Source: Bacilli bacterium (lineage in GTDB: Bacteria; Bacillota_I; Bacilli_A; RF39; UBA660). From it: a DNA stretch of 64,000 nt. The stretch is from assembly GCA_030602345.1 (NCBI GenBank), contig JAUVZX010000001.1, forward strand, positions 131,251-195,250. The letters are read 5' to 3'. How positions within the stretch are numbered: position 1 is the stretch's first letter; every line of letters starts with the position of its first letter. Below, piece by piece: positions 2,818-43,942 of this stretch. The notes beneath the pieces were generated by a model. That model saw nothing but the letters and a program-made list of their open reading frames with translations. It ran no database searches and was not told the origin of the DNA. The position numbers and the translations under genes were made by a program.

Positions 2818-2898
2818 ATAGCATCCGCGCCTCCCACTTGTTTCCTATATATAAATATATAGCTACATCATATTATCATAGTTTTTTTAAAAAAACAA

Positions 2899-3432: not shown

Positions 3433-3614
3433 TATGATCTCACCAATAGTTTAAAGAATGCAATGATTAAATCTGATAAGAAAAAGAATGCTGATAAAAC
3501 AAAAATAAATCCGATTGTTGCAACAGAATACATAACCATCTCTTTTCTTGATGGAAAATGCACTTTACTAACTTCTTTTCTAACAGAGTATACAAAATCT
3601 TGTACTTTCTTCAT
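3432..3614 (-). CDS. secE: Preprotein translocase subunit SecE
   Basis: 60 aa single-TM protein immediately upstream of nusG. Confidence 0.8.
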   Translation of the reverse strand: MKKVQDFVYSVRKEVSKVHFPSRKEMVMYSVATIGFIFVLSAFFFLSDLIIAFFKLLVRS

Positions 3615-3712
3615 ATTTCTCCTCTTTTTTCCAATTAAAAAACACTTACTCGTGTCTATATATAATATAGCACTTATTAATTTTTATGTCAATAAAAAAG
3701 AGCTATTGCTCT

Positions 3713-4144: not shown

Positions 4145-4217
4145 ACTATCTCCTAGTTTGATTATATCAAAAAAAAGAAAACAATAACTATTTTCTTTTT
4201 AAATATGTAAACAATAT

Positions 4218-5009
4218 TTACTTATCTTTTTTATAGTAATATGCGTTTATAGCAATTCCTAAAACAAATAAGTATGACAATAAATATATCCAAAACATTA
4301 AAATAACAATATTAGATAAATTACCATAAAATAAACTATAGTTTGCAAAGTTATTTACATAAAATGAATATACATAAGTTACAATGGTAAAACCAACTGT
4401 AACAAATAAAGCACCCTTATTCATATATTTACTCGGAATTGGACTATCCGGTGCAATAGTATATAAAGTTTTAACAAAGAAATATATTAGAGCCATTGAT
4501 AAAGGCCACTTAAATATTTCAATTAATAAATATACTTCTGTTTTAAACCACTCTAAACTTAATACAAAGTTAAGTAATGTCGTACCAAATGCAAGACCAA
4601 ATCCAATTATAATAAACATCGTAATTAGCATAAATAACATAATTACTGCTTTAACTCTTCTTTTTATAAAAGATCCTGCAGGTAAATCAAATAACCAATT
4701 AGATGCTAATATTACTGAATTAGATCCATTAGACGCTACAATAAAACCAAATATCATAAATGAGATAGTATTTACTGAAGCCGGTTGTGATACTAAACTA
4801 CTCAATATTCTAATCATATCTTCTGGAATAGAATCTTTAATCACTAGATTAAAAATATCAATCATAAATTGAAAATTAACTAAAATATATGTTGTCAAAG
4901 TTAATAAGGGAACTAAAGATAATACTAAGAAAAAAGCTAGTTGTCCCGGTAAAACTCTCATTTGCTGATTAATAATCAGAGGTTTTACTTTTTCAATAAT
5001 TTTTAACAT
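4218..5009 (-). CDS. YihY/BrkB family membrane protein
   Basis: Polytopic membrane protein whose N-terminus (LAFFLVLSLVPLL) matches the YihY/virulence factor BrkB signature. Confidence 0.65.
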   Translation of the reverse strand: MLKIIEKVKPLIINQQMRVLPGQLAFFLVLSLVPLLTLTTYILVNFQFMIDIFNLVIKDSIPEDMIRILSSLVSQPASVNTISFMIFGFIVASNGSNSVILASNWLFDLPAGSFIKRRVKAVIMLFMLITMFIIIGFGLAFGTTLLNFVLSLEWFKTEVYLLIEIFKWPLSMALIYFFVKTLYTIAPDSPIPSKYMNKGALFVTVGFTIVTYVYSFYVNNFANYSLFYGNLSNIVILMFWIYLLSYLFVLGIAINAYYYKKDK

Positions 5010-7030
5010 TATTCTTCCTCTTTGTTCTCTCTCATTTCTGTAGCAGCTTCATTTATCGCATCATCAATCGTTTTAATTTCATCTAAGATCATACTATATC
5101 CTAATGCTGCTCCAAACCCATGATCTAAATCTTTTAATTCTTTATTTAGTTTTCTCATATATAAGATCACTGCTCTTTCGTCATGTCCAACCATATAAAT
5201 TAAAAATTCGTTACCATCAGTTCTCATGATTTCACTGTTTTCAATTTGATTGTTAATTAAAACATTAGCAGCTTCTGCAATAATACGGTCACCCTCTTGA
5301 TAACCATAATTATCATTAATATAAGCTATATTATTTAAATCTATTATAATTACTGACTGAGGGTAAATGCTTGAATTATCCCATTTTTCAATATGATCAT
5401 TTAAATAATTTCTATTTTTCAAAGACGTTAACATATCAACATATTTTAATTTATCACTCTTAGTTAAAGAAACATCTTTTCTTTTTTTGTTTTTAAAGTA
5501 TTTTTTATATCCTAAGAAACCAAATGTTGCAAAGAATAAAACATATCCAAATAAGTTAAAGATGATCAATGATAGTGATAATTGATCTTTTTCAACCATC
5601 TCTAATGAAGCTTCTTTTATTACTTCTTGACGATTCACATATGAAGCAAAAAATTTAAAATAATCATTAAATATTTCATTATTACTTACATCTCTTAATA
5701 CGAAATTATAATTATCCATATCAACTAACTTTACCATTCCGTAATTATTAAATAATGATTTATTGTAAATGTATGTATGATAGTCTAATAAAATAACTTC
5801 TGAATTAGTATTACTCAATTCTTTAACATTCCTTGATAAGATAGGAGTTTCATTATAATTAGCAACAATACTATGAAGATGACTATCTTTTAATACTCCC
5901 ACTTTTAAATTAGCTAAACTATTTAAATTATTATATAAAGCTTTGGTCTTTCCATTTAGTAAAACAACATAATGATTATCAAAAATATCAACTGTTTCTA
6001 AATAATCTCCTTTGTGTTCAAAAGGATAAATATTATCATAATATAAGTCTAAATCATTAGCATCAAAAGCTTTAAATAATGATTCTTTATTACTATATGA
6101 TTTATATGTTATTTCAACATCTGCTAATCTCGAAAATCTTTTTAATAAAGTACTGTTAAACCCAACTAAATCATTATTAACTACACCATCATATGGTAAT
6201 TGTTCTACTAATCCATAAACATATCTTTTACTTCTAAATTTAGCTCTTGTTTTAGAATCGATATTATTATATTTAAAATAATTAGAAGTAAAATAGCGAT
6301 TATAAATTGTTTCGAATTTATCGTTATACCATTTATTAAAGTATTTAGTAATAATAGAATTCAACCTATCATCATTAGCAAGACCAATTACATAATACTC
6401 ATTCATTCCATAAATATTATAGTTAATATATAATTGTCTAGTCATTAATTGTTCCAAAAAGACTACTTTAGGTAAAACAATATGAGTAACATCAACATCT
6501 AAATCCGCAATCATAACATCATATGAAACATATGGTTTGTAAGTTGCACCTTCAATATCTGATAAGTTTAGTGAAGCTGTTGTCATAAAGTCCTCTAAAA
6601 CACCAATTTTAAGTTCTTTAACGCCAGTTAAAGATGGATAATATTCCTCTTTCAAAGAAACTAAGACATAATTGTCTTCTAATAATAGTAAGTCATTTTT
6701 TCTTAATTTAGATACTTTTTCTAAAGAATATATTTTAGATAAGTCTGCTCCTACTCCATAAGTAGTTTTATTGAAAGATAGTTTTGTATCTCTTTCAAAA
6801 TCTGCTATAAAGTCAAAAATAAGACCTGAACCATCCACATTAAAAATAGGTACATTATTAGGTATCGAAAAATCAAATACCTTATTTTTATTACTCTCAA
6901 TCCACTGTCTATCTAACAAACTAAGAGTCGTATTTTCATCTTCTTTATTTAAGAAATAATAAACTATTGAAGACAAAAAGAAAATTATAGCTAATACAAT
7001 AATTAATTTTTTTATTTGTTCCCTACTCAT
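5009..7030 (-). CDS. Membrane protein with large extracytoplasmic domain and C-terminal degenerate GGDEF domain
   Basis: 673 aa. There is an N-terminal TM helix, a ~450 aa external domain and a second TM helix. The C-terminal ~170 aa looks like a diguanylate-cyclase fold with DGNEF in place of GG(D/E)EF. Confidence 0.55.
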   Translation of the reverse strand: MSREQIKKLIIVLAIIFFLSSIVYYFLNKEDENTTLSLLDRQWIESNKNKVFDFSIPNNVPIFNVDGSGLIFDFIADFERDTKLSFNKTTYGVGADLSKIYSLEKVSKLRKNDLLLLEDNYVLVSLKEEYYPSLTGVKELKIGVLEDFMTTASLNLSDIEGATYKPYVSYDVMIADLDVDVTHIVLPKVVFLEQLMTRQLYINYNIYGMNEYYVIGLANDDRLNSIITKYFNKWYNDKFETIYNRYFTSNYFKYNNIDSKTRAKFRSKRYVYGLVEQLPYDGVVNNDLVGFNSTLLKRFSRLADVEITYKSYSNKESLFKAFDANDLDLYYDNIYPFEHKGDYLETVDIFDNHYVVLLNGKTKALYNNLNSLANLKVGVLKDSHLHSIVANYNETPILSRNVKELSNTNSEVILLDYHTYIYNKSLFNNYGMVKLVDMDNYNFVLRDVSNNEIFNDYFKFFASYVNRQEVIKEASLEMVEKDQLSLSLIIFNLFGYVLFFATFGFLGYKKYFKNKKRKDVSLTKSDKLKYVDMLTSLKNRNYLNDHIEKWDNSSIYPQSVIIIDLNNIAYINDNYGYQEGDRIIAEAANVLINNQIENSEIMRTDGNEFLIYMVGHDERAVILYMRKLNKELKDLDHGFGAALGYSMILDEIKTIDDAINEAATEMRENKEEE

Positions 7031-7038
7031 AATTCCTC

Positions 7039-7569
7039 CTAGTTATTACTCCAAATAAATACATTTGAAGTGCGATGTTTGTATCCTATTTTAACTGTTT
7101 CTCCTTGTGAAACAAACAATTGCAAATCATAATACTCTAAATTGTCTTCTTTAACTCCCGCTAAAAAGGCATCCTCAACAAATTTAAAGTTAGTTAATTT
7201 CAAGTCTTCCTTCAAAACAACTGTTACATATACTATTCTTCCTTGTTCTCTGACACTAAAAGACTCTATCTTATCATCTAATGCGTCAAACCTTGTTTCT
7301 AAGTGTTTCATATCTAAAACATACTCGCTTTTATTAGCTAATCTATTCCCATATAAATCTTCTTTGCTATTTGCTAAAGTAACTAAATATACAGCATACA
7401 AAAAGAATATTATAAATATAACTAAAATAGTTACTAGAGTTAATTTAAACCAATTCTTTTTAACAAATTCATTACCTTTTTTAACAGCTTTTTTACTTTT
7501 TACCATAACATCTCCTAAAAGAATTTTTATTTTTTTATAATGAGTTTTAAAATCCATCTTCTCACCCAT
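7039..7569 (-). CDS. Hypothetical membrane-anchored protein
   Basis: 176 aa with a single N-proximal TM helix. Confidence 0.4.
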   Translation of the reverse strand: MGEKMDFKTHYKKIKILLGDVMVKSKKAVKKGNEFVKKNWFKLTLVTILVIFIIFFLYAVYLVTLANSKEDLYGNRLANKSEYVLDMKHLETRFDALDDKIESFSVREQGRIVYVTVVLKEDLKLTNFKFVEDAFLAGVKEDNLEYYDLQLFVSQGETVKIGYKHRTSNVFIWSNN

Positions 7570-7600
7570 TTAATATTATATCATAAAAAAAGACATGTGT

Positions 7601-7960
7601 TTAGTTAACTGTAACTTTATAAACATGTCGATTATTTTCTAAAGTAATCGTAATAAAAGTATCATTAGAAAACCTTTGTTTAGTCTTAGGATTAATTAAT
7701 TCTCGTTTAATATATCCTCCATTTTTTAGTTCTTCTAATGAAACAATATAACTTTGACCATTTATTCTAGGTAAGTTTTCAGGATAATCAACTTCCCAAT
7801 TTTTAACTGCACTTACCATTAATTTAATTTGAACTTCATATGCACTGTCTGCAGAACCTTTAATATAACGATCAATCGATGGAATAACAATCGCCGACAC
7901 TAGTGCTAAAACGACAATAACTGCCAATATTTCCATTAAAGTAAATCCTTTATTTTTCAT
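7601..7960 (-). CDS. Type IV pilin / competence pseudopilin ComGC-like
   Basis: MKNKGFTLMEILAVIVVLALV has a class III signal (G|FTLxE, Glu+5). At 119 aa it is ComGC/major-pilin sized. Confidence 0.75.
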   Translation of the reverse strand: MKNKGFTLMEILAVIVVLALVSAIVIPSIDRYIKGSADSAYEVQIKLMVSAVKNWEVDYPENLPRINGQSYIVSLEELKNGGYIKRELINPKTKQRFSNDTFITITLENNRHVYKVTVN

Positions 7961-8002
7961 ATAATCACCTACTTTAATTATAACATAAAAAAAGAAATAA
8001 TT

Positions 8003-8407
8003 TTATTTCTTTTTACTGTTTTCTAATTTAGAAACTACATCTTTAGCTACTATTAAAGCTTCTTCTTTTAAATTTTCTACTGCCTCTTCTACTAAAGGTT
8101 GTCCTTTTTCCTTAGCCATCTTTAACATTTCATCTAATTTCTTTTCGATTGCTTTAGATGCTTTTTTAGCATTTGCTAAAACTTTTTCTTTATTTAAAGA
8201 TTCTATTTCTTTTTTAATTTCTTCCATTTTTAGAAGAGCGTTTTCTTTAACTTCTTCCAAGTCAATTTCTTCAATTCTTTTTAGAACTAAGTCCATTTCC
8301 TTTTTTAAAATTTCTCTCGTTTCTTTACCACTTCTAGGTGCAAATAAAACTCCTAATGAAGCTCCAATAGCAGCTCCTGCTAAAAACTTCGATAATCCTT
8401 TTTTCAT
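8003..8407 (-). CDS. YtxH-like general stress protein
   Basis: N-terminus MKKGLSKFLAGAAIGASLGVLFAP followed by a coiled-coil region, typical of the YtxH family. Confidence 0.6.
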   Translation of the reverse strand: MKKGLSKFLAGAAIGASLGVLFAPRSGKETREILKKEMDLVLKRIEEIDLEEVKENALLKMEEIKKEIESLNKEKVLANAKKASKAIEKKLDEMLKMAKEKGQPLVEEAVENLKEEALIVAKDVVSKLENSKKK

Positions 8408-8408
8408 T

Positions 8409-8681
8409 TTACTCTCCTTTTTTTCCTTTAAAAATATAACTTAATACATTTACAATGCCATTTACAAATAGATCACTTACTGTTGACAAACCATCTGCAG
8501 TAGAATCAATAATATCAAAGACGCCATTTAGCTTTTTTGATTTACTATTCACATCATCTAAAGTACGATCAATCTTGTCTAGTGTTGCCATTAATTTGAT
8601 AATTAATCTAATTGAATAAATCAATAATATGATTAATACAAAGTATATGACAATTGGCAAAAATTCATTTAAGTCAACCAT
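8409..8681 (-). CDS. DUF948 (YtxG-like) membrane protein
   Basis: 90 aa with an N-terminal TM helix and a coiled segment. It is adjacent to the ytxH-like gene, as in the B. subtilis ytxGH locus. Confidence 0.5.
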   Translation of the reverse strand: MVDLNEFLPIVIYFVLIILLIYSIRLIIKLMATLDKIDRTLDDVNSKSKKLNGVFDIIDSTADGLSTVSDLFVNGIVNVLSYIFKGKKGE

Positions 8682-8682
8682 C

Positions 8683-9342
8683 TTATTCTCCTTCCTTACT
8701 CAATTCATCTAACCAAGAAAATAAATCTTCTTGAATTGCAATCTCCTCTTTCGGTTCTTGAGTTGTTTTAGAAACATTAGCTACATAGTCTAATTTAACT
8801 TCTTCCTCTTCTTTTTTAGGAACATGTGCTACATAGTCTAATTTAACATCTTCTTTCATATCTTCGAATAAGTCTTGAGTAAAGCTTAACACTTCTGTTT
8901 TAGTAAAGTCTTTTTCATTAACCGTTTGTTCGATGACATCTTCCAAAGTGCCAAATGCTTTCTGTCTTACATCATCAATGCTAGCTTTTCTCGGTGGTCT
9001 TTGAATACCAATATTTTCTTTTGTTTTTATGTCTTCTTTTTTATAATTAGTATCCAGTACTCCATAGACAGGTGAAATGATTGGAGTTGGTTTAAAAGCT
9101 TTTGGAGCTTCTTTAACTCTTTCGCTTATCAACAAATCATTTTTTACCATTGGTTTTTTAATTTCTATGTCTTCGAAGTCTTTTTCATCAAAAAACAAAT
9201 TTCTTTTGACTTCTTTTATGTCTTCTTCCTCTTCCTCAACTGAAGGTATCTCCACTTTTGTCATTTTAGTAACAACTGGTTCAATTACCTCATCTTCTTC
9301 TTTAAAAAAATCTTTTATTTTATCAAACAATTCCATGTTCAC
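8683..9342 (-). CDS. Hypothetical acidic protein
   Basis: 219 aa, Glu/Asp/Lys-rich, with internal repeats (KKEEEEVKLDYVA x2). Confidence 0.4.
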   Translation of the reverse strand: MNMELFDKIKDFFKEEDEVIEPVVTKMTKVEIPSVEEEEEDIKEVKRNLFFDEKDFEDIEIKKPMVKNDLLISERVKEAPKAFKPTPIISPVYGVLDTNYKKEDIKTKENIGIQRPPRKASIDDVRQKAFGTLEDVIEQTVNEKDFTKTEVLSFTQDLFEDMKEDVKLDYVAHVPKKEEEEVKLDYVANVSKTTQEPKEEIAIQEDLFSWLDELSKEGE

Positions 9343-9344
9343 CT

Positions 9345-9974
9345 CTAATACCCATCTTCTTCTTCAGTATAAACTTCGATCCATTTCCTACTCAAACTCT
9401 CTGTGTTTTGGTTTGGAGAAAATATATTATATTGTCTTTCTCTACTTATAAAATAGTCTTGATTAAACATAAGTTTTATAACATTATCATTAAATTTAAT
9501 CGTCGACAAAATATAACTAGCATTTAAAATTGTGTTGTTTAAATTTCGTTCATTTACTAAGGCTTCTATTTTAGAATAATTATACATGAACTCTACGAAA
9601 TAAAGATTGTCTATTTTAGTTATTTCTAAATATCCTTTTCGATCATTATTATCGATTGCTTTAGAAAAATAAGCATCTTCATTTATTTCATATTCTACTT
9701 CCGTTTGATGAAAGTATCCAACTGCATCTATGTATAAATAATAGTAATTACCTGATGAATACAATTTTTCGTTTAATTCGAAAGTATCCACATAGTTAAC
9801 TCCCCTTGGTACATAGTATTTATATCCTTTTCCAACACGGTTGTATAAATCATTATCTTTAGATAATACAACATTTACAATATTGTCGATACTTTTAGTA
9901 TCTATTCTAACAACAGTACATGCAGATAAAAATAGTCCCAATGAAAGTATTAAAAATATTTTAATCTTTTTCAT
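9345..9974 (-). CDS. Lipoprotein
   Basis: Signal peptide with lipobox LSAC (MKKIKIFLILSLGLFLSAC). Confidence 0.6.
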   Translation of the reverse strand: MKKIKIFLILSLGLFLSACTVVRIDTKSIDNIVNVVLSKDNDLYNRVGKGYKYYVPRGVNYVDTFELNEKLYSSGNYYYLYIDAVGYFHQTEVEYEINEDAYFSKAIDNNDRKGYLEITKIDNLYFVEFMYNYSKIEALVNERNLNNTILNASYILSTIKFNDNVIKLMFNQDYFISRERQYNIFSPNQNTESLSRKWIEVYTEEEDGY

Positions 9975-9976
9975 TT

Positions 9977-10603
9977 TTATCTTATCACTTCCACCATATA
10001 AATTATATCACCTTTTGAAGAAAATTTCATCTCATACTCGGTCATAATATTATCTTTTGGATTATCTTGATGAAGGTTTAAGGATAAATCTTCTATTTTT
10101 AATCCATATTCAACATATGATTTTAGAGAATATTCAAATAAACTACGATTATCAGTTTTTTGAATAATCTTATAATTAATTAAAATATTGTCATATTTTT
10201 CTAAAAAAGAATGATGAGTTAATCTTCTTTTAGCATGTCTTTTTTTAGGCCAAGGATCAGAAAAATTCAAATATATACAACTTACTTCTTTTCCAAATAC
10301 TTCATCTAATTCTTCAGCATCCATACTAATTAATTTTAAATTAGGTAAATTTATATCTTCCAACTTATTTAAAACAAACATTTGGGCTGAAGGATATTTT
10401 TCTATTCCTATAAAATTGATATGTGGGTGCTTTTTAGCCATTTCTACGATGAAATTACCTTTCCCCATACCTATTTCTATCCTTAACTCATTTTGTTCTT
10501 TAAATAGAGAATTAAAGTTATTTTTATACTCTTTATAATTTTCGATTAAATAACCTGAAGCTAATAATTTTTCATATGCTCCTTTTATATTTTTTAAACG
10601 CAT
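9977..10603 (-). CDS. trmB: tRNA (guanine46-N7)-methyltransferase
   Basis: TrmB-like SAM methyltransferase (…EIGMGKGNFIVEMAKKHPHINFIGIE…). The start was moved to MRLKN (10603, alternative MVFPY at 10648). The ORF-track N-terminal extension (MEVFLQEAEAEA…) is the antisense of the upstream Gly-rich tail. Confidence 0.7.
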   Translation of the reverse strand: MRLKNIKGAYEKLLASGYLIENYKEYKNNFNSLFKEQNELRIEIGMGKGNFIVEMAKKHPHINFIGIEKYPSAQMFVLNKLEDINLPNLKLISMDAEELDEVFGKEVSCIYLNFSDPWPKKRHAKRRLTHHSFLEKYDNILINYKIIQKTDNRSLFEYSLKSYVEYGLKIEDLSLNLHQDNPKDNIMTEYEMKFSSKGDIIYMVEVIR

Positions 10604-10652: not shown

Positions 10653-12488
10653 TTAAAAACCTCCACCAGAACCACCGAAGCCTCCGCCTCCGCCTCCTGA
10701 AGAAAAACCTCCACCAGAACCCGAAGCAGATGCTCTTACAGCATGCTGAGCACTACTAATCGAATTAGTTAAACTAGTTGAAATAGCATGATTAACCATC
10801 ATTGTCGTTCTAAAACGATTAAACTCTGGTCCCATCGAACTATTATTAGGCATTTCTTGAATTCTTACTTTCATTACTTTTTCTAACTTAGTAGCAAGAC
10901 CAAATGCCATAGCATAAACCATATATTTACCCCAAAGTTCGATATGGGGCAATTCTTTCGTTTCAAAAGTACCAAAATCATCAATATAATTTTTTACAGC
11001 ACTCCACTTCAAGAACATCTCATCTCCTAAAGGAGTCACAGGCTTACTATATTTAGACATATATGCATAAAATAATATAGTTACAACAATATTACTTACC
11101 ATCACAATAAGTCCTAGTAATCCCATGAAAGCCCATAAGAATACAACTGCAAATATAGTCAATATTAAAAGGGTATCTGCTGCTCTAATTCTTACAAACT
11201 GTAAAGATGTATATCCTTTTTTAATTGTTTCTTGTTTAGATAATTTCTCCCACTCCGCATATTCTTTCATGAATTTTGAAGGAGATTTCTTTGAATAATC
11301 CACAATTTGTTTCATGGTAACAGTATAATTTGATCCTATTTTAGAAAATAATATTTCAATTAATTTCCTCTCTGGAGCAGTTACACTTTCATATGGAAAA
11401 GCATTTAATCTAAACTCAACATCATTTTTAGTTATCGTACTATAATCAATAAATTTTCTTTCAATCAAATACATTAAAGATGCTGAGAAATAATTAGCAT
11501 TAAATACTCCTGGCATAATATTTCCAATTACTTCTGGACCATCTAAACTTGGAAAATCTCTTAGATATTTATGAGGAAAAACTTTATTTTTTTCTTTTCT
11601 TTCTTTAACATACTTATCAAAAAAATAAATATTAAAAGACGTAAGAATAATCATTCCTATTGTTGCTACTACTCCCAAGCCTTTAGAAAAAGCAATCTCT
11701 TGGTTTCTTCTATTAGCATAAATTTCTTCCACTTCTTTAATCTTAGTATAAGCATCATCTATATTAGTTTTAGTAGTCGCCAAACTAACATCAGAAGGAT
11801 CAATAACTACTCTTGCAGATATACCTCTGTTAGAAGGAACACTACTCATTGTAAAAGTAGCAACATTACCACTTTTACCATATTCTCCTCCAATAGGTCC
11901 TCTTGCAAAAACACCAATTATATCACTTTTAGTATATACTCTAGCTTCAAAATCTCTAACCATTGTATTAAATCCATTTTCATGCAATCTAATATATACT
12001 TCTGCTACATCATTATGGACTCTAACAGCACCAATAACTTTATACTCAAAATAATATGCTCTTAAAGAACCCCCAGAAGGTGAAAACACTCTCATTTCAA
12101 AGTTTTTTCCATCATCAGTAACAGTATATATACCACTATCTCCTGGTATGGCACCATATTCTACATATTGAAAAAAGGAATTAAAACGATCTATTAAATC
12201 ATATCCTAACTCTAAATTTTGATTAGTACTACCTGCTCTTAAAGGAACTATTTTAGTTGGAACATAAGATAAATCATCATCAAATGAGTTATTGTTGAAG
12301 AAAAAAGCTCTATCTAAGTAAGCATCATTCATAAAATAACCATTTTCAGGATTAGCAATTACTACTTTTTTAACAATAATATCGCCATTTTCTAATATTT
12401 CATATTTTTGATATATACCATCTACTCTCATCCCAAAAACAAAAACTGGAAACAAGAATAAAATAACCATAAATATAAGTTTTTTCAT
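10653..12488 (-). CDS. DUF2207 family membrane protein with Gly-rich C-tail
   Basis: Signal peptide MKKLIFMVILFLFPVFVFG starts at 12488 (the ORF-track start at 12590 would overlap LemA). It has a large extracellular domain, TM helices and a C-terminal GSGGGFSSGGGGGGFGGSGGGF tail. Pairing with LemA is typical of this family. Confidence 0.7.
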   Translation of the reverse strand: MKKLIFMVILFLFPVFVFGMRVDGIYQKYEILENGDIIVKKVVIANPENGYFMNDAYLDRAFFFNNNSFDDDLSYVPTKIVPLRAGSTNQNLELGYDLIDRFNSFFQYVEYGAIPGDSGIYTVTDDGKNFEMRVFSPSGGSLRAYYFEYKVIGAVRVHNDVAEVYIRLHENGFNTMVRDFEARVYTKSDIIGVFARGPIGGEYGKSGNVATFTMSSVPSNRGISARVVIDPSDVSLATTKTNIDDAYTKIKEVEEIYANRRNQEIAFSKGLGVVATIGMIILTSFNIYFFDKYVKERKEKNKVFPHKYLRDFPSLDGPEVIGNIMPGVFNANYFSASLMYLIERKFIDYSTITKNDVEFRLNAFPYESVTAPERKLIEILFSKIGSNYTVTMKQIVDYSKKSPSKFMKEYAEWEKLSKQETIKKGYTSLQFVRIRAADTLLILTIFAVVFLWAFMGLLGLIVMVSNIVVTILFYAYMSKYSKPVTPLGDEMFLKWSAVKNYIDDFGTFETKELPHIELWGKYMVYAMAFGLATKLEKVMKVRIQEMPNNSSMGPEFNRFRTTMMVNHAISTSLTNSISSAQHAVRASASGSGGGFSSGGGGGGFGGSGGGF

Positions 12489-12525
12489 AGTTTCTCCTTT
12501 TAAAAAAGACTTATTAAAAATAAGT

Positions 12526-13077
12526 CTAAAATTTAACTTGTGGTGCAACTTTTTCGTTTTCTGTTGCTTCAAAGAAAGGCATATTTTCAAACTTAAACAT
12601 TGAAGCTACAATGTTACTCGGGAAAACTTGCATTAAATTTCTATATTGTAAAACAGCATCATTATAAAATTGTCTTGCATAAGATATTTTATCTTCTGTT
12701 TCTTTTAAATTAGCTTGTAAATCTAAAAAGTTAGTATTTGCTTTTAAATCTGGATAAGCTTCTGCTAAAGCAAATAATCTTCCTAAAGTCGCTGTTAATT
12801 CACCATTTGCTTGCATTTCTGCTTCTGCAGATGGTGCACTTACCACACGATTACGCGCTGTAATAACTGCATCAAATGTTTCTTTTTCATGAGATGCATA
12901 ACCTTTTACTGTTTCTACTAAATTAGGGATTAAGTCAGCACGTCTTTTTAAAAATACGTCTACCTGAGCCCATTGATCTTGTGTCATATTTCTTCTTTGA
13001 ATTAATTTGTTATATGTTGAAGCAACATACATAGCAATTAATCCTACTATTACTAATAAAATTATTAAAAATTCCAT
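12526..13077 (-). CDS. lemA: LemA family protein
   Basis: 183 aa with an N-terminal TM helix and conserved LemA core (…ARQFYNDAVLQYRN…). Confidence 0.85.
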   Translation of the reverse strand: MEFLIILLVIVGLIAMYVASTYNKLIQRRNMTQDQWAQVDVFLKRRADLIPNLVETVKGYASHEKETFDAVITARNRVVSAPSAEAEMQANGELTATLGRLFALAEAYPDLKANTNFLDLQANLKETEDKISYARQFYNDAVLQYRNLMQVFPSNIVASMFKFENMPFFEATENEKVAPQVKF

Positions 13078-13135: not shown

Positions 13136-14971
13136 CTAGAAACCTCCACCTGAGCCTCCAAAGCCACCTTTTCCGCCCCCAGAAGATAACCCACCTCCAG
13201 AACCAGAAGATGAAGCTTTTCTTCCCATGCGTGATGTTCTAATTGAACGACTAACGCTATTAGATAAAGTTTGATTTATTATCATTGTTACTCTTAAATG
13301 ATTTAAGTTGGCCGTTAATAAACTTCTATTTGGTATTTCTTCTATTTTTATGTTCATTGCTCTTTCTAATTTTGTAGCAAGACCAAATGCCGTGGCATAA
13401 ACTATATATTTACCCCAAAGCTCTATTTGAGGCAATTCTTTAGTTTCAAAATTACCAAAATCATCAATATAATTTTTTAAAGCACTCCATTTAAGAGCCG
13501 TCTCATGGCCTAAATCAGTAGTTGGCCTACTATGAATTGTAATATAATAACTTATCATGGCATAGGCTAAAATATTACCCAAAACTAAACCATAACTAAT
13601 AAAATTATAGTAATTAAAACCTAAAGCAGCAATAAACATAATAATAATCACTAAACCATTAAAACTTGATAAAGATGGTTTTCTTTTAGCTAAATACTTC
13701 TTCTGATATGCTTCTTTTCTACTTAATTCTTCCCATAGTTTATATTCCTTAGCAAATTCCTCTTTATTGTTTTTAGAGTATTTTTCAACTTGTTTCATTG
13801 AAACAGTTAAATTGGTCCCTATTTTATAGAAAAATATTTCGATTAATTTTCTTTCTGCTTCAGTTATTTTTTCATAAGGAACTTTATTTAATATAAGCAC
13901 AACATCATTTTTATCTATTTCACTATAACTTGCATATTTTTTTTCAACTAAATTCATTAATGCTGCCGAAAAATAATTACCATTAAATTGACCAGGCATA
14001 ATATGACCTACTACCTCTGGACCATCTAAACTTGGAAAATCCCTTAAATACTTATGAGGAAAAACTTTATTTTTTTCTTTTAATTTTTCTTCAAATTTAA
14101 AATAATAATATATTTGAGACACAATAGATAAAACCAAAGTAAAGTTCACTAACATATTAAAATAATTAAATGCTCTTAACTCTGCATTTCTTTGATCAGC
14201 ATATCCCTTTTCCACCAATACAATTTGTGGATAAGCTTCATCAAAATTTGTTTTTATATTAGCTAAACTAACATCAGAAGGATCAATTACAACTCTTGCA
14301 GAAATACCTGATAAAGCAGGAATATTTCTCATTTTAAAAGTAGCAACATTACCATTTTTATTATAGTCTCCACCAATCGGTCCTCTTCCAAAAACTCCTA
14401 TAATATCACTCTTTGTATAAATTCTTGCTTCAAATTTTCTAACATTATAATTAAATTCACTATCATGCAATCTAATAAATACTTCTGCTACATCATTGTG
14501 GACTCTAACGGCATCATAAACAATATATTCAAAATAATATGCTCTTAAAAATCCATTTGAAGGAGCAAATACATTTATTTCAAAAGTATTTTCCATCATT
14601 AGTACATTAAATTTACCAGTTTCACCTTTTTGAATTAATTCTACAACTCTTTCATAAAATTCATCAAATGAATCAATCAAGTCATAACCAGACATTAAAT
14701 TTTTACTAGTACTACCTGCTCTTATGACTTCGAATCCCGTTGGAGCATAAGCTAGATCATTATCAAAAGAACTCAAAGTAAACACTAGTGGGCTTTTTGA
14801 AATACTATCGTCCATATAATACCCATTTTCAGGATTAGCGATAACTACTTTCTTAACTAAAACATTACCATTTTCAAGTATTTCATATTTTTGATATATG
14901 CTATCTACTCTCATCCCCAAAACAAAAGAAGGTAATAAAAATAATATAATTGTAAACAAAACTTTTTTCAT
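13136..14971 (-). CDS. DUF2207 family membrane protein, paralog 2
   Basis: 611 aa. It has the same architecture as 10653..12488 (signal peptide MKKVLFTIILFLLPSFVLG, conserved blocks RAYYFEY…VRVHNDVAEV…, and a C-terminal SGGGKGGFGGSGGGF tail). Confidence 0.7.
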   Translation of the reverse strand: MKKVLFTIILFLLPSFVLGMRVDSIYQKYEILENGNVLVKKVVIANPENGYYMDDSISKSPLVFTLSSFDNDLAYAPTGFEVIRAGSTSKNLMSGYDLIDSFDEFYERVVELIQKGETGKFNVLMMENTFEINVFAPSNGFLRAYYFEYIVYDAVRVHNDVAEVFIRLHDSEFNYNVRKFEARIYTKSDIIGVFGRGPIGGDYNKNGNVATFKMRNIPALSGISARVVIDPSDVSLANIKTNFDEAYPQIVLVEKGYADQRNAELRAFNYFNMLVNFTLVLSIVSQIYYYFKFEEKLKEKNKVFPHKYLRDFPSLDGPEVVGHIMPGQFNGNYFSAALMNLVEKKYASYSEIDKNDVVLILNKVPYEKITEAERKLIEIFFYKIGTNLTVSMKQVEKYSKNNKEEFAKEYKLWEELSRKEAYQKKYLAKRKPSLSSFNGLVIIIMFIAALGFNYYNFISYGLVLGNILAYAMISYYITIHSRPTTDLGHETALKWSALKNYIDDFGNFETKELPQIELWGKYIVYATAFGLATKLERAMNIKIEEIPNRSLLTANLNHLRVTMIINQTLSNSVSRSIRTSRMGRKASSSGSGGGLSSGGGKGGFGGSGGGF

Positions 14972-15017: not shown

Positions 15018-16517
15018 TTATCTATTAGAAATGGTTAATCTAAATCCCATAGTAGAAGAATCAATACCTGAAGACGAAGTATAACTAAAAATACTTGCTG
15101 TTGACGAAGTAGCAGAACCTCCTCTTTCTAACCAAGGGTTAGATAAATCAACAAAATTAGAAGTTCCACTATACCAACCAGCTGTCTCTGCTAAAGCATG
15201 ACCTGTACAAGGTAAATTAAAACATGCCGTTAAAGGAGATAAAGTTGTGTAATGATTATAATATTTTTCATCAGGGAATGATGAAAAACCTGAGTTACCA
15301 TTAGTTCTTCTATAATTACCCATTACAAACTCACTTACACCACCAGCCATATCATATACTCCATATACATTACCAGTCGTACTTGCTCTTTGACCATTTG
15401 TCGTAGTATATGCGTTAGCACATCCCGCTACTGCAGCAGCTGTAACACTATTTCCTGCACACCCCGTTATATACGTATTACTATTATTTTTCCAAATTTG
15501 AACACCACTACCATATTGACTAGCAGCTAAGTAAGATACTGCACCCCATTCACTATTTTTAGCCATTCTTGCTTCAAAAATTGATTTAGAAATACCAAAC
15601 TCATTATTATCACCTGAAACGACATCTAAGTTAGCAAACAATAATAAAGGTTGAACGCTTCTTAAAGCTGAAATACTAGGCTTAATTCTAAGATTAGTTA
15701 AAGTTCCTCCAGTTTCAAACTTACCAAACCAAAAACCAGTTAACTCACGATTGCCATAAGTAAAGGCAGGATGCGTAATATAAGAAGCTCCCACTCCTGT
15801 CCCAGTCGCTCTTTCATAAAGACCTTCTTCAAAGTTAACGACTATATTATTAACACCTGAAACACCATAATTAAATCTTGGAATCCACACTAAATACATT
15901 AAAATATCAACTTCCCTAACTTCAATACCTAAAGCAGCATCTGACTCATAATATTCTCTTGTTCTAGTACCCACTTCTTTAACTAAAGCAACATTAGCCC
16001 ACATTCTATTAGTATAATCATACCATTTAGCAGAACTAGGATTACGATAATCTGCCTTAACCCATTTAGTACCATCCCATCTAATAGGAATCAATCCCTT
16101 AGATAAAACAGGTTCAGAAGCTAACGAAGTGTCACTATTAAAAACACAAGCCTCTTCCTTAACAATTATTCTTTTCTCATCATATATTTTAGTTGCACAC
16201 CAATCTTTATATTGAATAATAGCAGAAATTCTTCCATCCTCATCCAACTTAACAATTCCTGTACCATTAATCGGAGTCTCTAAATCAATATTAGGCTCTA
16301 TTACACCATTAACAATATTATAAACACGATTTATATTAAAACCACTACTAGCCTTATCCATATCAACTGCCTTAATCAAAGCTGCTACACTATCTTCAAA
16401 AGCTCCCTTTTCAGAACTCTTTAAAACATTACCTATTGTAGGAGCAGTAATCAAACTAACAATTGCAATAATAGCAATAACTGCCAATAACTCAATTAAT
16501 GTAAAACCTTTTTTCAT
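15018..16517 (-). CDS. Modular type IV pilin-like protein with C-terminal FGE-sulfatase (SUMF1-like) domain
   Basis: N-terminus MKKGFTLIELLAVIAIIAIV is a class III signal. The C-terminal 250 aa carry FGE-family motifs (…KNSEWGAVSYLAASQYG…, GVYDMAGGVSEFVMGNY, ERGGSATSS resembling RGGSW). Confidence 0.6.
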   Translation of the reverse strand: MKKGFTLIELLAVIAIIAIVSLITAPTIGNVLKSSEKGAFEDSVAALIKAVDMDKASSGFNINRVYNIVNGVIEPNIDLETPINGTGIVKLDEDGRISAIIQYKDWCATKIYDEKRIIVKEEACVFNSDTSLASEPVLSKGLIPIRWDGTKWVKADYRNPSSAKWYDYTNRMWANVALVKEVGTRTREYYESDAALGIEVREVDILMYLVWIPRFNYGVSGVNNIVVNFEEGLYERATGTGVGASYITHPAFTYGNRELTGFWFGKFETGGTLTNLRIKPSISALRSVQPLLLFANLDVVSGDNNEFGISKSIFEARMAKNSEWGAVSYLAASQYGSGVQIWKNNSNTYITGCAGNSVTAAAVAGCANAYTTTNGQRASTTGNVYGVYDMAGGVSEFVMGNYRRTNGNSGFSSFPDEKYYNHYTTLSPLTACFNLPCTGHALAETAGWYSGTSNFVDLSNPWLERGGSATSSTASIFSYTSSSGIDSSTMGFRLTISNR

Positions 16518-16564: not shown

Positions 16565-17590
16565 CTAAAATGTTTGCCAACCTCCTGCAGTAAAGTAACT
16601 TGGTGCCCCAGAGTTATTTATCCACACTCTATTTATAATTTCATCCATTTGTTCTTTTGTTGGTTCATTTCCTGTACCAAATGCTTCTGTTAAATTCATG
16701 AACATAACCGCCTTAACTGTTGCATAAGCATTTCCGTTCAAATAAGCACCGGCATGCGAAAAATTAAGTTGAATCCTGAATGAAGTTGCTGTAGAAGCTC
16801 TAGAGTCACTCGCATTTACTACATAAGAGTTCTTACCAATTAAAATGTTGTCGCCACCATACGAAACGTATGTTGGATGAACAGAAGACAATTGAAAAGT
16901 AGGAGTGTAAATATTATGACCTTCTAAAAAATCAATATTAACATAGTATCTATTATTAAGTATGGGCAAAACACTAAAATTATATATCAATCTAAACGTA
17001 CTGTGTACGTCACCACTATATAATCTTTGATATCGATTACTAGTTATTACTTCGGATAGCAAAGTATTTTCACGTCCCCAACCGGTAGCCAATATATCAT
17101 TACCTGCACTAAAATCACCATTGATTACTAAATTATTAAATGGTGCGTTTACTTGTGAATAATATATATTACTTACACATTCACTCTCGCTCATCTTACT
17201 TACTACTATCTCTTCGCTACTTCTATCCTTAACTGAACAATGGACTCCATCATATAAAGCTAACTTTATACTTCCGTCTTCAAATATATGAATTCCTCCT
17301 GATTTAGGATTATTTCCATTAAAGACTATGTCTTTATCATTAGGATATACTGTTTTATCACCTTCATTAAATAATACAAATATTGGTACATTTCCATTTC
17401 CTGTCTTATCTAATACATATAAGTTTTCACTAGCCTTAATTAATCCTTGTGTTGATGATCTAAAACTTCTTTCTTGTGCTGTTTCTATCATATTAAGTGC
17501 ATTTGGCACTGTAATTAATGCAATGATTGCTAGTACTACCATTACTACTAATAATTCTATTAATGTAAATCCTTTTTTCTTCTTTTTCAT
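16565..17590 (-). CDS. Pilin-like surface protein, variable paralog A
   Basis: MKKKKKGFTLIELLVVMVVLAIIALITVPNAL is a class III signal. The first ~150 aa and the last ~35 aa are conserved with the two neighbouring paralogs, and the centre is divergent. Confidence 0.65.
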   Translation of the reverse strand: MKKKKKGFTLIELLVVMVVLAIIALITVPNALNMIETAQERSFRSSTQGLIKASENLYVLDKTGNGNVPIFVLFNEGDKTVYPNDKDIVFNGNNPKSGGIHIFEDGSIKLALYDGVHCSVKDRSSEEIVVSKMSESECVSNIYYSQVNAPFNNLVINGDFSAGNDILATGWGRENTLLSEVITSNRYQRLYSGDVHSTFRLIYNFSVLPILNNRYYVNIDFLEGHNIYTPTFQLSSVHPTYVSYGGDNILIGKNSYVVNASDSRASTATSFRIQLNFSHAGAYLNGNAYATVKAVMFMNLTEAFGTGNEPTKEQMDEIINRVWINNSGAPSYFTAGGWQTF

Positions 17591-17641: not shown

Positions 17642-18562
17642 TTAAAATGTTTTCCATCCTCCTGCGGTAAAGTAATTTGGTATACCTAAATTATTTATCC
17701 ACACTCTGTCTAATTGCCCTTCACTAGGATTGATCCACCCCTCTAAAATGATTACATTTGCTAACATATTACCCTGAACCGAAATGTTTGTTTGCAACCA
17801 TATACTACCTAAAGAATCCGAAGGTAATGGATTTTGAGCTACCGCTTGTGCATAATATAGTCCTGTTGCCCCCGTATTTATTGTAACTTGAGGTATTAAT
17901 AAATCAAACCTAGAATCAGTTCTTAATATCGCCGGCATATTAAAATTGTTTTCTAGAATATCTAAAATAACTGTGTACTCCCCTCCTGCAATTGGTCTCC
18001 ACTGAAATCTATTTAATATCCTATCCCAAACTCCACCATTAAAGCGAATGTTTTCACCAACTTTTGAAGAATTAGAAAAAACCATTGTACTATGATTATA
18101 TAAATTATTAAAAGGTGCACTTACTTGTGAATAGTATATATTACTTATACATTCACTATCACTCATCTTACTTAGTATTATATCTTCACTACTTCTATTT
18201 TTAACTGAACAATATACTCCATCATATAATGCCAACTTTATACTTCCATCTTCAAATATGTGGATTCCTCCTGATTTGGGATTACTTCCACTAAATATGA
18301 TATCTCTATCATTTGGATATACTGTTTTTTCTCCTTCATTAAATAATACAAATACTGGTACGTTTCCATTTCCTGTCTTATCTAATACATATAAGTTTTC
18401 ACTAGCTTTAATCAATCCCTTTGTTGATGATCTAAAACTTCTTTCTTGAGCTGTTTCTATCATATTAAGTGCATTGGGCACTGTGATTAATGCTATTATT
18501 GCTAGTACTACCATTACTACTAATAACTCTATTAATGTAAATCCTTTTTTCTTCTTTTTCAT
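17642..18562 (-). CDS. Pilin-like surface protein, variable paralog B
   Basis: Same N-terminus as paralog A, nearly identical at the nucleotide level, with the conserved C-terminal …RVWINNLGIPNYFTAGGWKTF. Confidence 0.65.
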   Translation of the reverse strand: MKKKKKGFTLIELLVVMVVLAIIALITVPNALNMIETAQERSFRSSTKGLIKASENLYVLDKTGNGNVPVFVLFNEGEKTVYPNDRDIIFSGSNPKSGGIHIFEDGSIKLALYDGVYCSVKNRSSEDIILSKMSDSECISNIYYSQVSAPFNNLYNHSTMVFSNSSKVGENIRFNGGVWDRILNRFQWRPIAGGEYTVILDILENNFNMPAILRTDSRFDLLIPQVTINTGATGLYYAQAVAQNPLPSDSLGSIWLQTNISVQGNMLANVIILEGWINPSEGQLDRVWINNLGIPNYFTAGGWKTF

Positions 18563-18613: not shown

Positions 18614-19594
18614 TTAGAATGTTTTCCAACCTCCTGCAGTAAAGTAATGTACTACTCCAGAACCATTGATCCATACTCTATTTATGATTTCATCCATCTC
18701 TTCTTTTGTTGGTTCATTACCTGCTCCATATAAAGATGTTAAATCAAGCGTTATAGCTTTTTTTATTTCCATTATTTTCCCGTTCGCTTCAGATGCACTT
18801 GAATAAGATTGAACAATTATATTATAAGATGATACAGTTGCAGTCGCCGTTCTATTGGTAGAAAATACATACCATTTGCCAATTATAGAATTATATACGT
18901 TTACATCACTATTTGTAACATTAAATGATCTTTGTCTTAAAAAATCCGGGTTTCCATTAATTATTCTTGCTTCCCAATTATAATAATATACATTATTTAA
19001 TACGATATTTATAGATCTTCCAACGTATGATTGATTCCCAACTCCATTACCAGTAAGTCTTAAGACTCTCCCAACTACTTCTTGAGTAGAGTTACTTGCA
19101 ATCCACCCAGATGTTCCATTACTAAAGTCTCCATTGGTTATCAAATTATTAAATGGTGCACTTGTTTGTTCATAATATATATTTGATAAACAAATATTCT
19201 CACTTATCTTACTTATTGTTATTTCTTCGCTTGTTCTATTCTTTATTGAACAATATGTTCCATCATATAAAGCTAGTTTTATACTTCCGTCTTCAAATAT
19301 ATGGATTCCTCCTGATTCAGGATTACTTCCATTAAACATGATGTCTTTAGTATTTGGATATACTGTTTTTATTCCATTTTCAAACAAGATAAAGACTGGT
19401 ACATTTCCATTTCCTGTCTTATCTAATACATATAGGTTTTCACTAGCCTTAATTAATCCTTGTGTTGATGATCTAAAACTTCTTTCTTGAGCTGTTTCTA
19501 TCATATTAAGTGCATTTGGCACTGTAATTAATGCTATTATCGCTAGCACTACCATTACTACTAATAACTCTATTAATGTAAATCCCTTTTTCAT
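18614..19594 (-). CDS. Pilin-like surface protein, variable paralog C
   Basis: Same N-terminal 150 aa block and C-terminal …RVWINGSGVVHYFTAGGWKTF, with a divergent centre. Confidence 0.65.
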   Translation of the reverse strand: MKKGFTLIELLVVMVVLAIIALITVPNALNMIETAQERSFRSSTQGLIKASENLYVLDKTGNGNVPVFILFENGIKTVYPNTKDIMFNGSNPESGGIHIFEDGSIKLALYDGTYCSIKNRTSEEITISKISENICLSNIYYEQTSAPFNNLITNGDFSNGTSGWIASNSTQEVVGRVLRLTGNGVGNQSYVGRSINIVLNNVYYYNWEARIINGNPDFLRQRSFNVTNSDVNVYNSIIGKWYVFSTNRTATATVSSYNIIVQSYSSASEANGKIMEIKKAITLDLTSLYGAGNEPTKEEMDEIINRVWINGSGVVHYFTAGGWKTF

Positions 19595-26762: not shown

Positions 26763-26779
26763 AATTTTGAGTTAATTTA

Positions 26780-27088
26780 CTATCTATTGATGGTTGAAGC
26801 TACACATGTATCAGTATCAAAAACTACTGAAACAAAAGAATAATTTCCTTTGTAATCTAAATCTGCAGCAACTACTGGACTAGTAACTGTTGCGCCTGGA
26901 CTTAAAGTTTTTTGTTCTAAACAATAAACTTCTGCAGCTCTTCTAATTCCATCTTCTGATCTAGCATCTGCTCTTTCTTGTGCAGTTGTAATCATCGCAA
27001 GTGCATTTGGTACTGTAATTAACGCAATGATTGCTAATATAACGATAACTACTAATAATTCTATTAGTGTAAATCCTTTTTTATTCAT
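26780..27088 (-). CDS. Type IV major pilin-like protein (ComGC-sized), paralog 1
   Basis: MNKKGFTLIELLVVIVILAIIALITVPNALAMI is a class III signal. 102 aa. Confidence 0.75.
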   Translation of the reverse strand: MNKKGFTLIELLVVIVILAIIALITVPNALAMITTAQERADARSEDGIRRAAEVYCLEQKTLSPGATVTSPVVAADLDYKGNYSFVSVVFDTDTCVASTINR

Positions 27089-27117
27089 ATTATATTTTCT
27101 CCTTTATTTTTTTGAGT

Positions 27118-27459
27118 TTATGGCATTGTTGTTAATGCTGTCGCTGTACATGAAGCATTAAACGAAAAACCAACTACAGGAAAACCATCAGCAGTTTTCA
27201 ATGTTGTACCGGTTTTAATTAGAGTCCCTAATCCTGCAACAGTAACTGGCCCTGGAGTAGCGAAGGTTGCTGATCCTGTTTTTTCTCTCATACAATAAAC
27301 TTCTGCAGCTCTTAATGCACCTTCTAATGATCTAGCATCTGCTCTTTCTTGAGAAGTTGCAATCATTGCTAATGCATTAGGCACTGTGATTAATGCGATG
27401 ATTGCTAAAATAACGATAACAACCAATAATTCGATTAATGTGAAACCTTTTTTGTTCAT
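27118..27459 (-). CDS. Type IV major pilin-like protein, paralog 2
   Basis: Same conserved N-terminal ~55 aa and a divergent C-terminal half. 113 aa. Confidence 0.75.
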   Translation of the reverse strand: MNKKGFTLIELLVVIVILAIIALITVPNALAMIATSQERADARSLEGALRAAEVYCMREKTGSATFATPGPVTVAGLGTLIKTGTTLKTADGFPVVGFSFNASCTATALTTMP

Positions 27460-27595
27460 TTTTTTCCCTATCCTTTCTATGTTTTAAATATATCATTTTA
27501 GGGGGTGCTAGTCAAGAGTAATTTTGTAAAAGTATGGGCAAAAAACGGATAGGCATTATAATATAAGGTTTATATTTATGTAAACTTTTTTTGTT

Positions 27596-27922
27596 TTATT
27601 CTGGTATTACGAAATTAGGTGCACATGTATCTTGATTGAATTCTATATGGTCTTGTCCATCAAGATGATCTGGTACTGCTTTTATAAAATTAGGAACTAA
27701 ATTGTTCATGCTTACTGCGATAATCGGTGCGGTACCTTTTAGTTTTTCAGTCATGCAATATAATTCCGCGGCTCTTAAGATTCCGTCTTCAGATCTTGCA
27801 TTTGCTCTTTCTTGAGCTGTTGCAATCATTGCTAATGCATTTGGTACTGTGATAAGAGCTATGATTGCCAATATAACGATAACTACTAGTAATTCTATTA
27901 GCGTAAATCCTTTGTTTTTCAT
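27596..27922 (-). CDS. Type IV major pilin-like protein, paralog 3
   Basis: MKNKGFTLIELLVVIVILAIIALITVPNALAMIATAQER. 108 aa with a divergent C-terminus. Confidence 0.75.
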   Translation of the reverse strand: MKNKGFTLIELLVVIVILAIIALITVPNALAMIATAQERANARSEDGILRAAELYCMTEKLKGTAPIIAVSMNNLVPNFIKAVPDHLDGQDHIEFNQDTCAPNFVIPE

Positions 27923-27971
27923 GGCTACTCCTTTCCTATTATATTTTTATATTACTACGTTTTTTATAAAA

Positions 27972-28000
27972 AAATAAGAAAAACATGGTTTTTCTTATTT
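27972..28000 (-). terminator. Intrinsic terminator after LamG-pilin gene
   Basis: aagaaaaac-catg-tttttctt hairpin followed by a T-run on the minus strand. Confidence 0.55.
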
Positions 28001-28015
28001 TGGTTTACACTTTTG

Positions 28016-43601: not shown

Positions 43602-43942
43602 GGGGATGTCACGGTTTCGACGAATCTCTCGAATATTAGATGGCAAGTCGTGAGGATTGCGTTAAGTCCAAAATAAAATTAAGTGGAAACACATATAATT
43701 TAGCATTCGCTTAAAAAAATAACGATGCTGCTTTCCTCTTTCCATCCTACGGGAAAGAAAGAAGGCTCGAATTAGTAGGATATACTTATATAGGTGCTTA
43801 ACTATATAAAAGAACAAATAAAGCTCACTAATTGTTAGATTTTCAATTATCTTTAGATTAGGACATTAATTAATTGAATAAGCTTGTAGATATCTAAGGT
43901 TTGAATTTTCGGACAGGAGTTCAATTCTCCTCATCTCCACCA
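43602..43942 (+). ncRNA. ssrA: tmRNA (SsrA)
   Basis: The 5' end GGGGATGTCACGGTTTCGACG pairs with the 3' end …GGACAGGAGTTCAATTCTCCTCATCTCCACCA (tRNA-Ala-like acceptor/T-arm with CCA). The internal tag reading frame ends …GNTYNLAFA followed by TAA. Confidence 0.9.

Follow-up and report, generated by a model that had tools for sequence, protein, structure and literature searches.

Three tandem type IV pilins with a common core helix and unrelated heads in a strain-variable island of an uncultured Bacilli lineage

What is encoded by three short tandem genes whose products are nearly identical at the N terminus and share almost nothing beyond it, and could these products belong to one filament? 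The question arises at positions 26780 to 27922 of a 64,000-nucleotide (nt) stretch (hereafter, the window) of contig JAUVZX010000001.1 from Bacilli bacterium assembly GCA_030602345.1. Judged by their signal sequences and family profiles, the three genes, here called P1, P2, and P3, encode genuine type IV pilins, and they lie between rplT and nfo in an island whose pilin content differs from strain to strain. The kind of arrangement found here, a strain-variable pilin island encoding a common core helix and unrelated heads, is already known in other pilus systems.

The three open reading frames (ORFs) were confirmed on the minus strand, at the positions and with the lengths given in a preliminary description of the locus. 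P3 (27596 to 27922; prepilin of 108 amino acids [aa]) occupies slot 1, P2 (27118 to 27459; 113 aa) occupies slot 2, and P1 (26780 to 27088; 102 aa) occupies slot 3, where it adjoins nfo. P3 and P2 are 136 nt apart, P2 and P1 are 29 nt apart, and a purine-rich ribosome-binding site precedes each gene. A canonical class III signal can be read in each product: a five-residue leader (MKNKG in P3 and MNKKG in P1 and P2) that ends in Gly-1 is followed by Phe+1, Glu+5, and Pro+22. The N-terminal pattern is M[NK][NK]KG directly followed by FTLIELLVVIVILAIIALITVP, that is, a short basic leader and then a hydrophobic stretch of ~21 residues opening the N-terminal helix (α1). All three proteins score 37.1 to 37.3 bits against PF07963 N_methyl (cutoff, 21.2) and 35.5 to 36.9 bits against TIGR02532 (cutoff, 16.3). 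Sequence matches in the PDB were exclusively to major pilins or pseudopilins, with coverage limited to α1.

Mature residues 1 to 28 are FTLIELLVVIVILAIIALITVPNALAMI in P1, P2, and P3 alike. Amino acid identity among the paralogs is 91 to 95% over residues 1 to 44 and 86 to 89% over residues 1 to 56, and 51 of the first 60 residues are identical in every pair (z = 22 to 24 versus shuffles). The N termini, which the preliminary description had called identical over residues 1 to 40, are thus near-identical but not strictly so, given the different leader of P3. From residue 61 to the end, pairwise similarity is not significant (z = 1.3 to 2.3; 9 to 11 identities in 42 to 48 residues). The sole feature common to the heads is an F-[ND]-x(2,3)-C motif near the C terminus, and apart from this motif the divergence described past the N-terminal helix held. 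Between paralogs, codons 1 to 44 contain 13 to 17 synonymous versus 2 to 4 nonsynonymous codon changes, and over codons 1 to 56 the synonymous divergence (dS) is 0.7 to 1.2 with a nonsynonymous-to-synonymous ratio (dN/dS) of 0.08 to 0.12. Because synonymous changes far outnumber nonsynonymous ones and dN/dS is low, the filament-core helix is kept by purifying selection. The same 13 to 17 synonymous codon differences argue against recent gene conversion of the shared N terminus.

The conserved cysteine pair noted earlier was also borne out. Each protein has exactly two cysteines, at positions 56 and 95 in P1, 56 and 104 in P2, and 56 and 100 in P3. A protein search yielded a subfamily of 12 proteins, all metagenomic, in which residues 1 to 33 are invariant or nearly so and in which an invariant Cys56 and exactly one further Cys near the C terminus occur in 12 of 12 members; Cys56 is absent in hits more distant than this subfamily. 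A profile search of genome contigs with the subfamily alignment was dominated by generic GFTLIELL pilins of many phyla and did not recover close relatives. The AlphaFold2 model of P2, built on the 12-sequence alignment, has a mean predicted local distance difference test (pLDDT) score of 81.5 and comprises a helix at residues 8 to 62, a short helix at 74 to 77, and strands at 94 to 100 and 106 to 110, with Cys104 in the turn joining the two strands. The P3 model has the same confident helix at 8 to 62 (pLDDT of 85 to 97 in both models) and two C-terminal strands around Cys100, in a head of low confidence. As modeled, the fold of P2 and P3 is that of a "lollipop pilin" with a very small head. 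The invariance of the cysteines suggests that this head is probably stapled by a disulfide from Cys56 on the helix to the Cys between the two C-terminal strands. Such a tiny Cys-stapled head may serve as a minimal pilin scaffold.

These features bear on a second proposal of the preliminary description, namely, that P1 to P3 are ComGC-like and belong to the competence (Com) pseudopilus, which takes up DNA. The best NCBIfam match of two of the three paralogs is indeed pilin_ComGC, and P1 to P3 resemble ComGC, the major pilin of the monoderm Com pilus, in length, short leader, and Pro22. A Cys pair running from α1C to the C terminus also recalls Cys36-Cys76 of Bacillus subtilis ComGC, in which a stabilizing disulfide connects α1C with the C-terminal part (PMC7212644). 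However, scores against the ComGC profile (NF040999; 41.9, 35.6, and 38.0 bits) fall short of its 75-bit equivalog cutoff, and the alignments cover the helix only (model positions 1 to between 41 and 59, of 84). The ComGC head is purely helical, with α2-α3 orthogonal to α1 (PMC7212644), whereas the P2 and P3 models have C-terminal β strands and no second long helix, with moderate (P2) or low (P3) confidence for the head. The neighbors at this locus are rplT, the gene for a pilin with a lectin-type LamG module (see below), nfo, and sodA; neither comGA and comGB nor T2SSE and T2SSF were found among the window ORFs scanned. Instead of one conserved gene, there are three paralogs with strain-hypervariable heads beside a lectin-module pilin, which would suit an adhesive pilus better than DNA uptake. 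We consider the ComGC proposal very unlikely and do not retain it. The GspG-type major pseudopilin of type II secretion (TIGR01710) was rejected as well, at 30.5 to 34.0 bits versus a cutoff of 88.85 and with the match confined to the N-terminal helix. The best structural match of the P2 model was Clostridioides difficile PilA1, a weak and nonsignificant one (E = 0.5; template modeling score, 0.38). PilA1 and other clostridial pilins are likewise type IV pilins of Gram-positive bacteria, each genome having several paralogs, but they are larger than P1 to P3 and have no Cys56 staple.

How the locus varies was compared across metagenome contigs of the same species that carry subfamily relatives (L001, L002, L083, L084, L085, L089, and L090). 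Flanking DNA is 96.3 to 97.6% identical (BLASTN), and this identity stops abruptly at window positions 26765 to 26768, at the terminator after P1, and at ~28896, where the first pilin gene that follows rplT begins. Inside these limits, alignment is restricted to the 5′ 130 to 230 nt of the pilin genes, at 70 to 87% identity (BLASTN). The heads encoded between rplT and nfo in other strains are unalignable or merely 40 to 47% identical to those of the window, and dS rises from 0.03 to 0.14 in the flanks to >1 for the heads of positional orthologues. Because the heads are far more diverged than the near-identical flanks, the rplT-nfo interval is a strain-variable pilin island.

Gene order across the contigs is in keeping with such an island. 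At its nfo end, L001 reads pilin114-pilin124-nfo, and both L084 and L085 read pilin-pilin127-nfo-sodA; L002 reads P3-like gene-gap-pilin104-pilin117. At its rplT end, L083 reads infC-rpmI-rplT-pilin123-Gly-rich modular pilin, L089 reads infC-rpmI-rplT-Gly-rich modular pilin, and L090 reads rplT-LamG pilin, like the window. In the window, the first island gene after rplT (28016 to 28966, minus strand) encodes a 316-aa modular pilin in which a pilin module with a GFTVFE N terminus is joined to a Laminin_G_3/concanavalin-like lectin module (E = 1.3e-21). This LamG-pilin slot is kept in L090, and Gly-rich modular pilins are found there instead in L083 (1798 to 2781) and L089 (1909 to 3123); the Gly-rich replacement carries a long Gly-rich domain (404 aa).

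The pilin heads fall into four classes. Class A comprises P3, L002a, and P0005 (z = 16 to 27), class B comprises the Thr/Ala/Gly-rich head of P2 and that of L002b (z = 11), class C comprises P1, L002c, and L001b (z = 6.6 to 10), and class D, at the same site in other strains, comprises L084b, P0006, and L083a (z = 7 to 15). Taken singly, the P3 head matches those of L002a and P0005 at z = 19 to 27, and the P1 head matches that of L002c at z = 6.6 to 7.7. The slot order A-B-C is common to the window and L002, in which the heads are 40 to 47% identical and the adjoining housekeeping genes are 98 to 99% identical. The preliminary description had raised the prospect that some of the paralogs are pseudogenized in relatives. 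This is not what the recovered contigs contain, since L002 retains three slots and all complete pilin ORFs in L001, L002, and L084 are intact. One head, that of P0005 (from a 652-bp contig of an ENA metagenome), is a mosaic, with a front half like the heads of class B (L002b and P2; z = 6 to 10) and a back half like those of class A (P3 and L002a; z = 16 to 19), which suggests recombination within head-coding regions.

It might be asked whether the array is a device for recombination-driven antigenic variation, with copies converting one another as in Neisseria pilE/pilS. The common 5′ ends (~170 to 200 nt, 76 to 79% identity) could support recombination, and the class B/A mosaic of P0005 points the same way. 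However, none of the three is a silent, promoterless, 5′-truncated cassette of the pilS kind: each has its own start codon and ribosome-binding site and encodes a signal peptide. The synonymous differences between their 5′ ends mean that conversion has not been recent. Nor did the locus yield a recombinase gene or inverted repeats, including any that would point to an invertible switch. With every copy complete and no recent conversion, a pilE/pilS-type cassette system is not supported, and we hold it to be extremely unlikely.

Allelic pilin loci offer another comparison. The pilA groups of Pseudomonas aeruginosa and the fimA serogroups of Dichelobacter nodosus represent allelic pilin diversity at a fixed site, in which the N-terminal coding part is conserved and the C-terminal part is highly diverged among strains. 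Such loci hold a single major pilin, in some cases joined by an accessory gene. The rplT-nfo island has similarly sharp identity breakpoints at its edges but differs in encoding a trio of short pilins together with a modular pilin that is exchangeable.

Transcription signals bear on how the three genes may be used. A promoter-like element, TTGACT-17 nt-TG-n-TATATT, lies upstream of P2 at 27515 to 27487 (minus strand) and is kept in position and sequence in L002 (241 to 269) and L084 (91 to 119); it is likely the start of a P2-P1 transcript. The internal promoter put forward in the preliminary description, TTTACA-18 nt-TATAAT, is present at 27584 to 27555 (minus strand; 11/12 matches), but it was not detected in L002 and does not occur in the 54-nt gap of L084, and promoter-like matches in this AT-rich region are no commoner than in shuffles (11 found versus 14.9 ± 3.7). 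The conserved element lies 70 nt closer to P2. An intrinsic terminator follows P1 (26761 to 26742, minus strand; 8-bp stem and U-run; −17.1 kcal/mol; z = −5.5); its hairpin is identical in L084 and doubles as the downstream boundary of the island. Between the LamG pilin gene and P3, an AT-rich perfect 14-bp hairpin with a U-run (27971 to 28001, minus strand; −12.9 kcal/mol; z = −5.4) is a probable terminator separating transcription units. The folding of both hairpins is significantly stronger than that of shuffled sequence. Folding of the 136-nt gap between P3 and P2 was not significant, and Rfam and tRNA scanning of it gave no structured RNA. From these signals, the transcription units would be LamG pilin, P3, and P2-P1, with P3 transcribed alone and P2 and P1 transcribed together, from the conserved extended −10 promoter to the strong terminator.

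Because the 136-nt gap has promoter-like signals of its own, expression levels of P3 may differ from those of P2 and P1. Such a separation would fit an arrangement in which one paralog builds the shaft and the remaining two, as minor pilins of low abundance, serve to prime assembly or to decorate the filament, and most type IV pili do have one major pilin (PMC8179133). Minor pilins, however, usually differ in α1 and in size, whereas P1 to P3 have the same α1N and similar sizes, and a strong ribosome-binding site precedes each gene. All three slots are, moreover, intact in another strain. On these grounds, a single shaft pilin with two minor companions seems unlikely to us.

For a shaft made of several paralogous pilins, there is a documented precedent. 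Type IV pili of Streptococcus sanguinis are stochastic heteropolymers of the tandem-encoded pilins PilE1 and PilE2 (PMC10628169), and S. sanguinis CGMH010 has three major pilins (PilA1 to PilA3) with identical or near-identical α1 (PMC11121087). Minor pilins of S. sanguinis include modular von Willebrand factor A (vWA) and concanavalin-like lectin pilins (PMC8179133). Among known systems, we take PilE1/PilE2 to be the closest precedent by analogy. As in this monoderm species, with its two to three tandem pilin genes, P1 to P3 are encoded in tandem and have a near-identical α1 with Glu5 and Pro22, and the LamG-module pilin beside them recalls the modular lectin pilin of S. sanguinis. The two systems differ in several respects. 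S. sanguinis paralogs are 70 to 94% identical over their whole length (PMC11121087), whereas the heads of P1 to P3 are unrelated; S. sanguinis pilins are encoded inside the pil machinery locus, whereas P1 to P3 lie between rplT and nfo, with no machinery genes found nearby; and P1 to P3 are smaller (97 to 108 mature residues) and have the conserved Cys56-to-C-terminal Cys pair.

Considering this precedent, we lean, by a modest degree, toward a single type IV filament in which P1 to P3 are alternative or co-polymerizing shaft subunits and which also bears the many modular pilins encoded in the window. A PilD/ComC-type prepilin peptidase encoded elsewhere would cut after the leader Gly to give the mature pilins, and mature segment 1 to 28 would pack in the filament core. 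Because this core segment is the same in all three, P1 to P3 would be interchangeable in assembly. Three "major" shaft subunits, whether alternative or co-polymerizing, would give a filament with three different surfaces formed by small heads (~45 to 55 residues) unrelated in sequence. The window's modular pilins would probably be low-abundance functional subunits of the same filament, with the LamG pilin as a candidate adhesin subunit. It is possible that head diversity is driven by phage, host, or partner recognition acting on an exposed surface structure. The preliminary description had likewise suggested alternative major subunits of one filament, resulting in a pilus that is heteropolymeric or antigenically variable. 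Its observation was real and the genes were correctly recognized as pilins; the common core and the strain hypervariability fit its proposal, which is plausible by analogy with the precedent above, while "major" status and heteropolymer formation remain presumptive.

Several points weigh against this reading. T2SSE, T2SSF, and Peptidase_A24 domains (PilB, PilC, and PilD, respectively) were not found among the scanned ORFs of the 64-kb window, nor was an extension ATPase, platform protein, or prepilin peptidase of the type IV pilus type found in the 10 kb past its right end. Because no such machinery genes were seen, filament assembly of P1 to P3 is unproven, and this is the main gap. The "major" status of the three is presumed from their size and core identity. 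PilE1 and PilE2 are alike along their whole length and the heads of P1 to P3 are unrelated, so co-packing in one filament is not assured. Finally, dN/dS for the heads is unreliable, with saturated sites and unreliable alignments, and was not used as evidence.

The window also encodes a secretion apparatus. A conjugation-type type IV secretion system (T4SS) extends from 51780 to 64000 and over positions 1 to 10000 of the contig past the right end (L094), with a VirD4 coupling protein, a VirB4/TraG-like ATPase, an M23 peptidase, and a weak T4SS_pilin match. Outside the window, it runs on into a Tad-like module with a CpaB-like protein, a 362-aa VirB11/TadA-like ATPase, two membrane proteins, and a 61-aa Cys-rich protein. 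The 362-aa ATPase was considered as machinery for P1 to P3 and rejected: it is attached to the T4SS and is not part of a PilB/PilC/PilD set.

The class III N terminus is not confined to the island. At least 10 window genes encode it, including those for P1 to P3, the LamG pilin, a 756-aa protein with CE2_N-type domains, a second tandem trio, a 499-aa protein with an FGE-sulfatase-like domain, and a 119-aa protein, and the core helix of the modular pilins is nearly that of P1 to P3 (FTLIELLVVMVVLAIIALITVPNAL...). A recurrent N terminus fused to such different modules (LamG, CE2_N, FGE-sulfatase-like, and Gly-rich), in genes scattered among housekeeping genes with no machinery found nearby, might also be expected if the class III signal were a general export signal and membrane anchor and P1 to P3 were small anchored surface antigens, not filament subunits. 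However, Glu5, Pro22, and an invariant 28-residue α1N under strong purifying selection match the needs of filament packing and not those of an anchor, and modular pilins have been documented as filament subunits (PMC8179133). We therefore give the anchor explanation only a small chance of being correct.

The other pilin genes of the window have features of their own. The second trio (16565 to 17590, 17642 to 18562, and 18614 to 19594, minus strand; 341, 306, and 326 aa) has ~150 N-terminal residues in common, a variable middle module, and a conserved C-terminal end, RVWINNxGxPxYFTAGGWxTF. The 62-nt upstream regions of these genes are 95 to 100% identical, and a same-strain Logan assembly appears to break at this repeat. 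The 756-aa modular pilin with CE2_N-type domains is encoded at 30311 to 32581 (minus strand), and other strains (L089, 216 to 560; L091, 3 to 251) have a 114-aa allele (P0013) with an in-frame deletion, in which the pilin helix runs straight into the final ~60 residues, the junction lying at a repeated AAEVY motif. The genes for the 499-aa pilin with the FGE-sulfatase-like domain (15018 to 16517, minus strand) and the Cys-free 119-aa pilin (7601 to 7960, minus strand) have a near-identical 5′ leader containing TGTTATAAT, and the latter lies one ORF (7039 to 7569) upstream of the gene for a 673-aa GGDEF protein (5009 to 7030). A 444-aa Gly_rich_2/Ig-like protein (33371 to 34705, minus strand) has a degenerate pilin-like N terminus (MKLNNKGFAISGILY...) without Glu5 and is possibly one more pilin-like subunit. 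Immediately downstream of the pilin-rich region, a LemA gene lies between two genes for paralogous DUF2207 membrane proteins (10653 to 12590, 12526 to 13077, and 13136 to 14971, minus strand).

A related pilin of 134 aa (P0019; L086, 10001 to 10405), from a distant "Bacilli bacterium," is encoded between a glycosyltransferase cluster and a gene for a Wzy_C (O-antigen-ligase-like) protein, a neighborhood that hints at pilin O-glycosylation in that lineage. Wzy_C was not found among the window ORFs scanned. The window itself has a G+C content of ~29%, and its housekeeping genes (PBP2, FtsW/RodA, LtaS-like sulfatase, Ldh, SodA, Nfo, Ffh, and FtsY) are those of a walled, Firmicute-like organism; in a database search, the nearest Ffh outside its own cluster was just 61% identical. 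The sole Rfam matches in the window are a tmRNA (43602 to 43942, plus strand; tag GNTYNLAFA) and a ribosomal protein L10 leader (1444 to 1560, minus strand). A literature search for type IV pili in RF39 or Mollicutes-like genomes returned nothing usable.

These findings leave the current view of type IV pili unchanged; they extend known themes (several major pilins, modular pilins, and allelic pilin loci) to a new lineage. If P1 to P3 co-assemble, they would form a natural type IV filament whose subunits share the core helix only, and this would bear on the importance of head-to-head packing, a question posed by the S. sanguinis heteropolymer. More broadly, and speculatively, a deep-branching walled Bacilli lineage might rely on a single type IV filament as its principal programmable surface, with a three-pilin mosaic shaft whose unrelated, disulfide-stapled mini-heads are swapped or diversified between strains and which displays a large set of modular pilins with the same core helix (lectin, carbohydrate-binding, sulfatase-modifying-like, and Gly-rich). 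We think this picture quite unlikely; if true, it would make the heteropolymer far more heterogeneous than that of PilE1/PilE2. Of most interest are the island, which varies among strains, and how densely this little-studied lineage encodes surface proteins fused to pilins. Near-identical flanks around very diverged heads indicate that selection in this little-known, uncultured group, whether diversifying or balancing, acts strongly on the filament surface.

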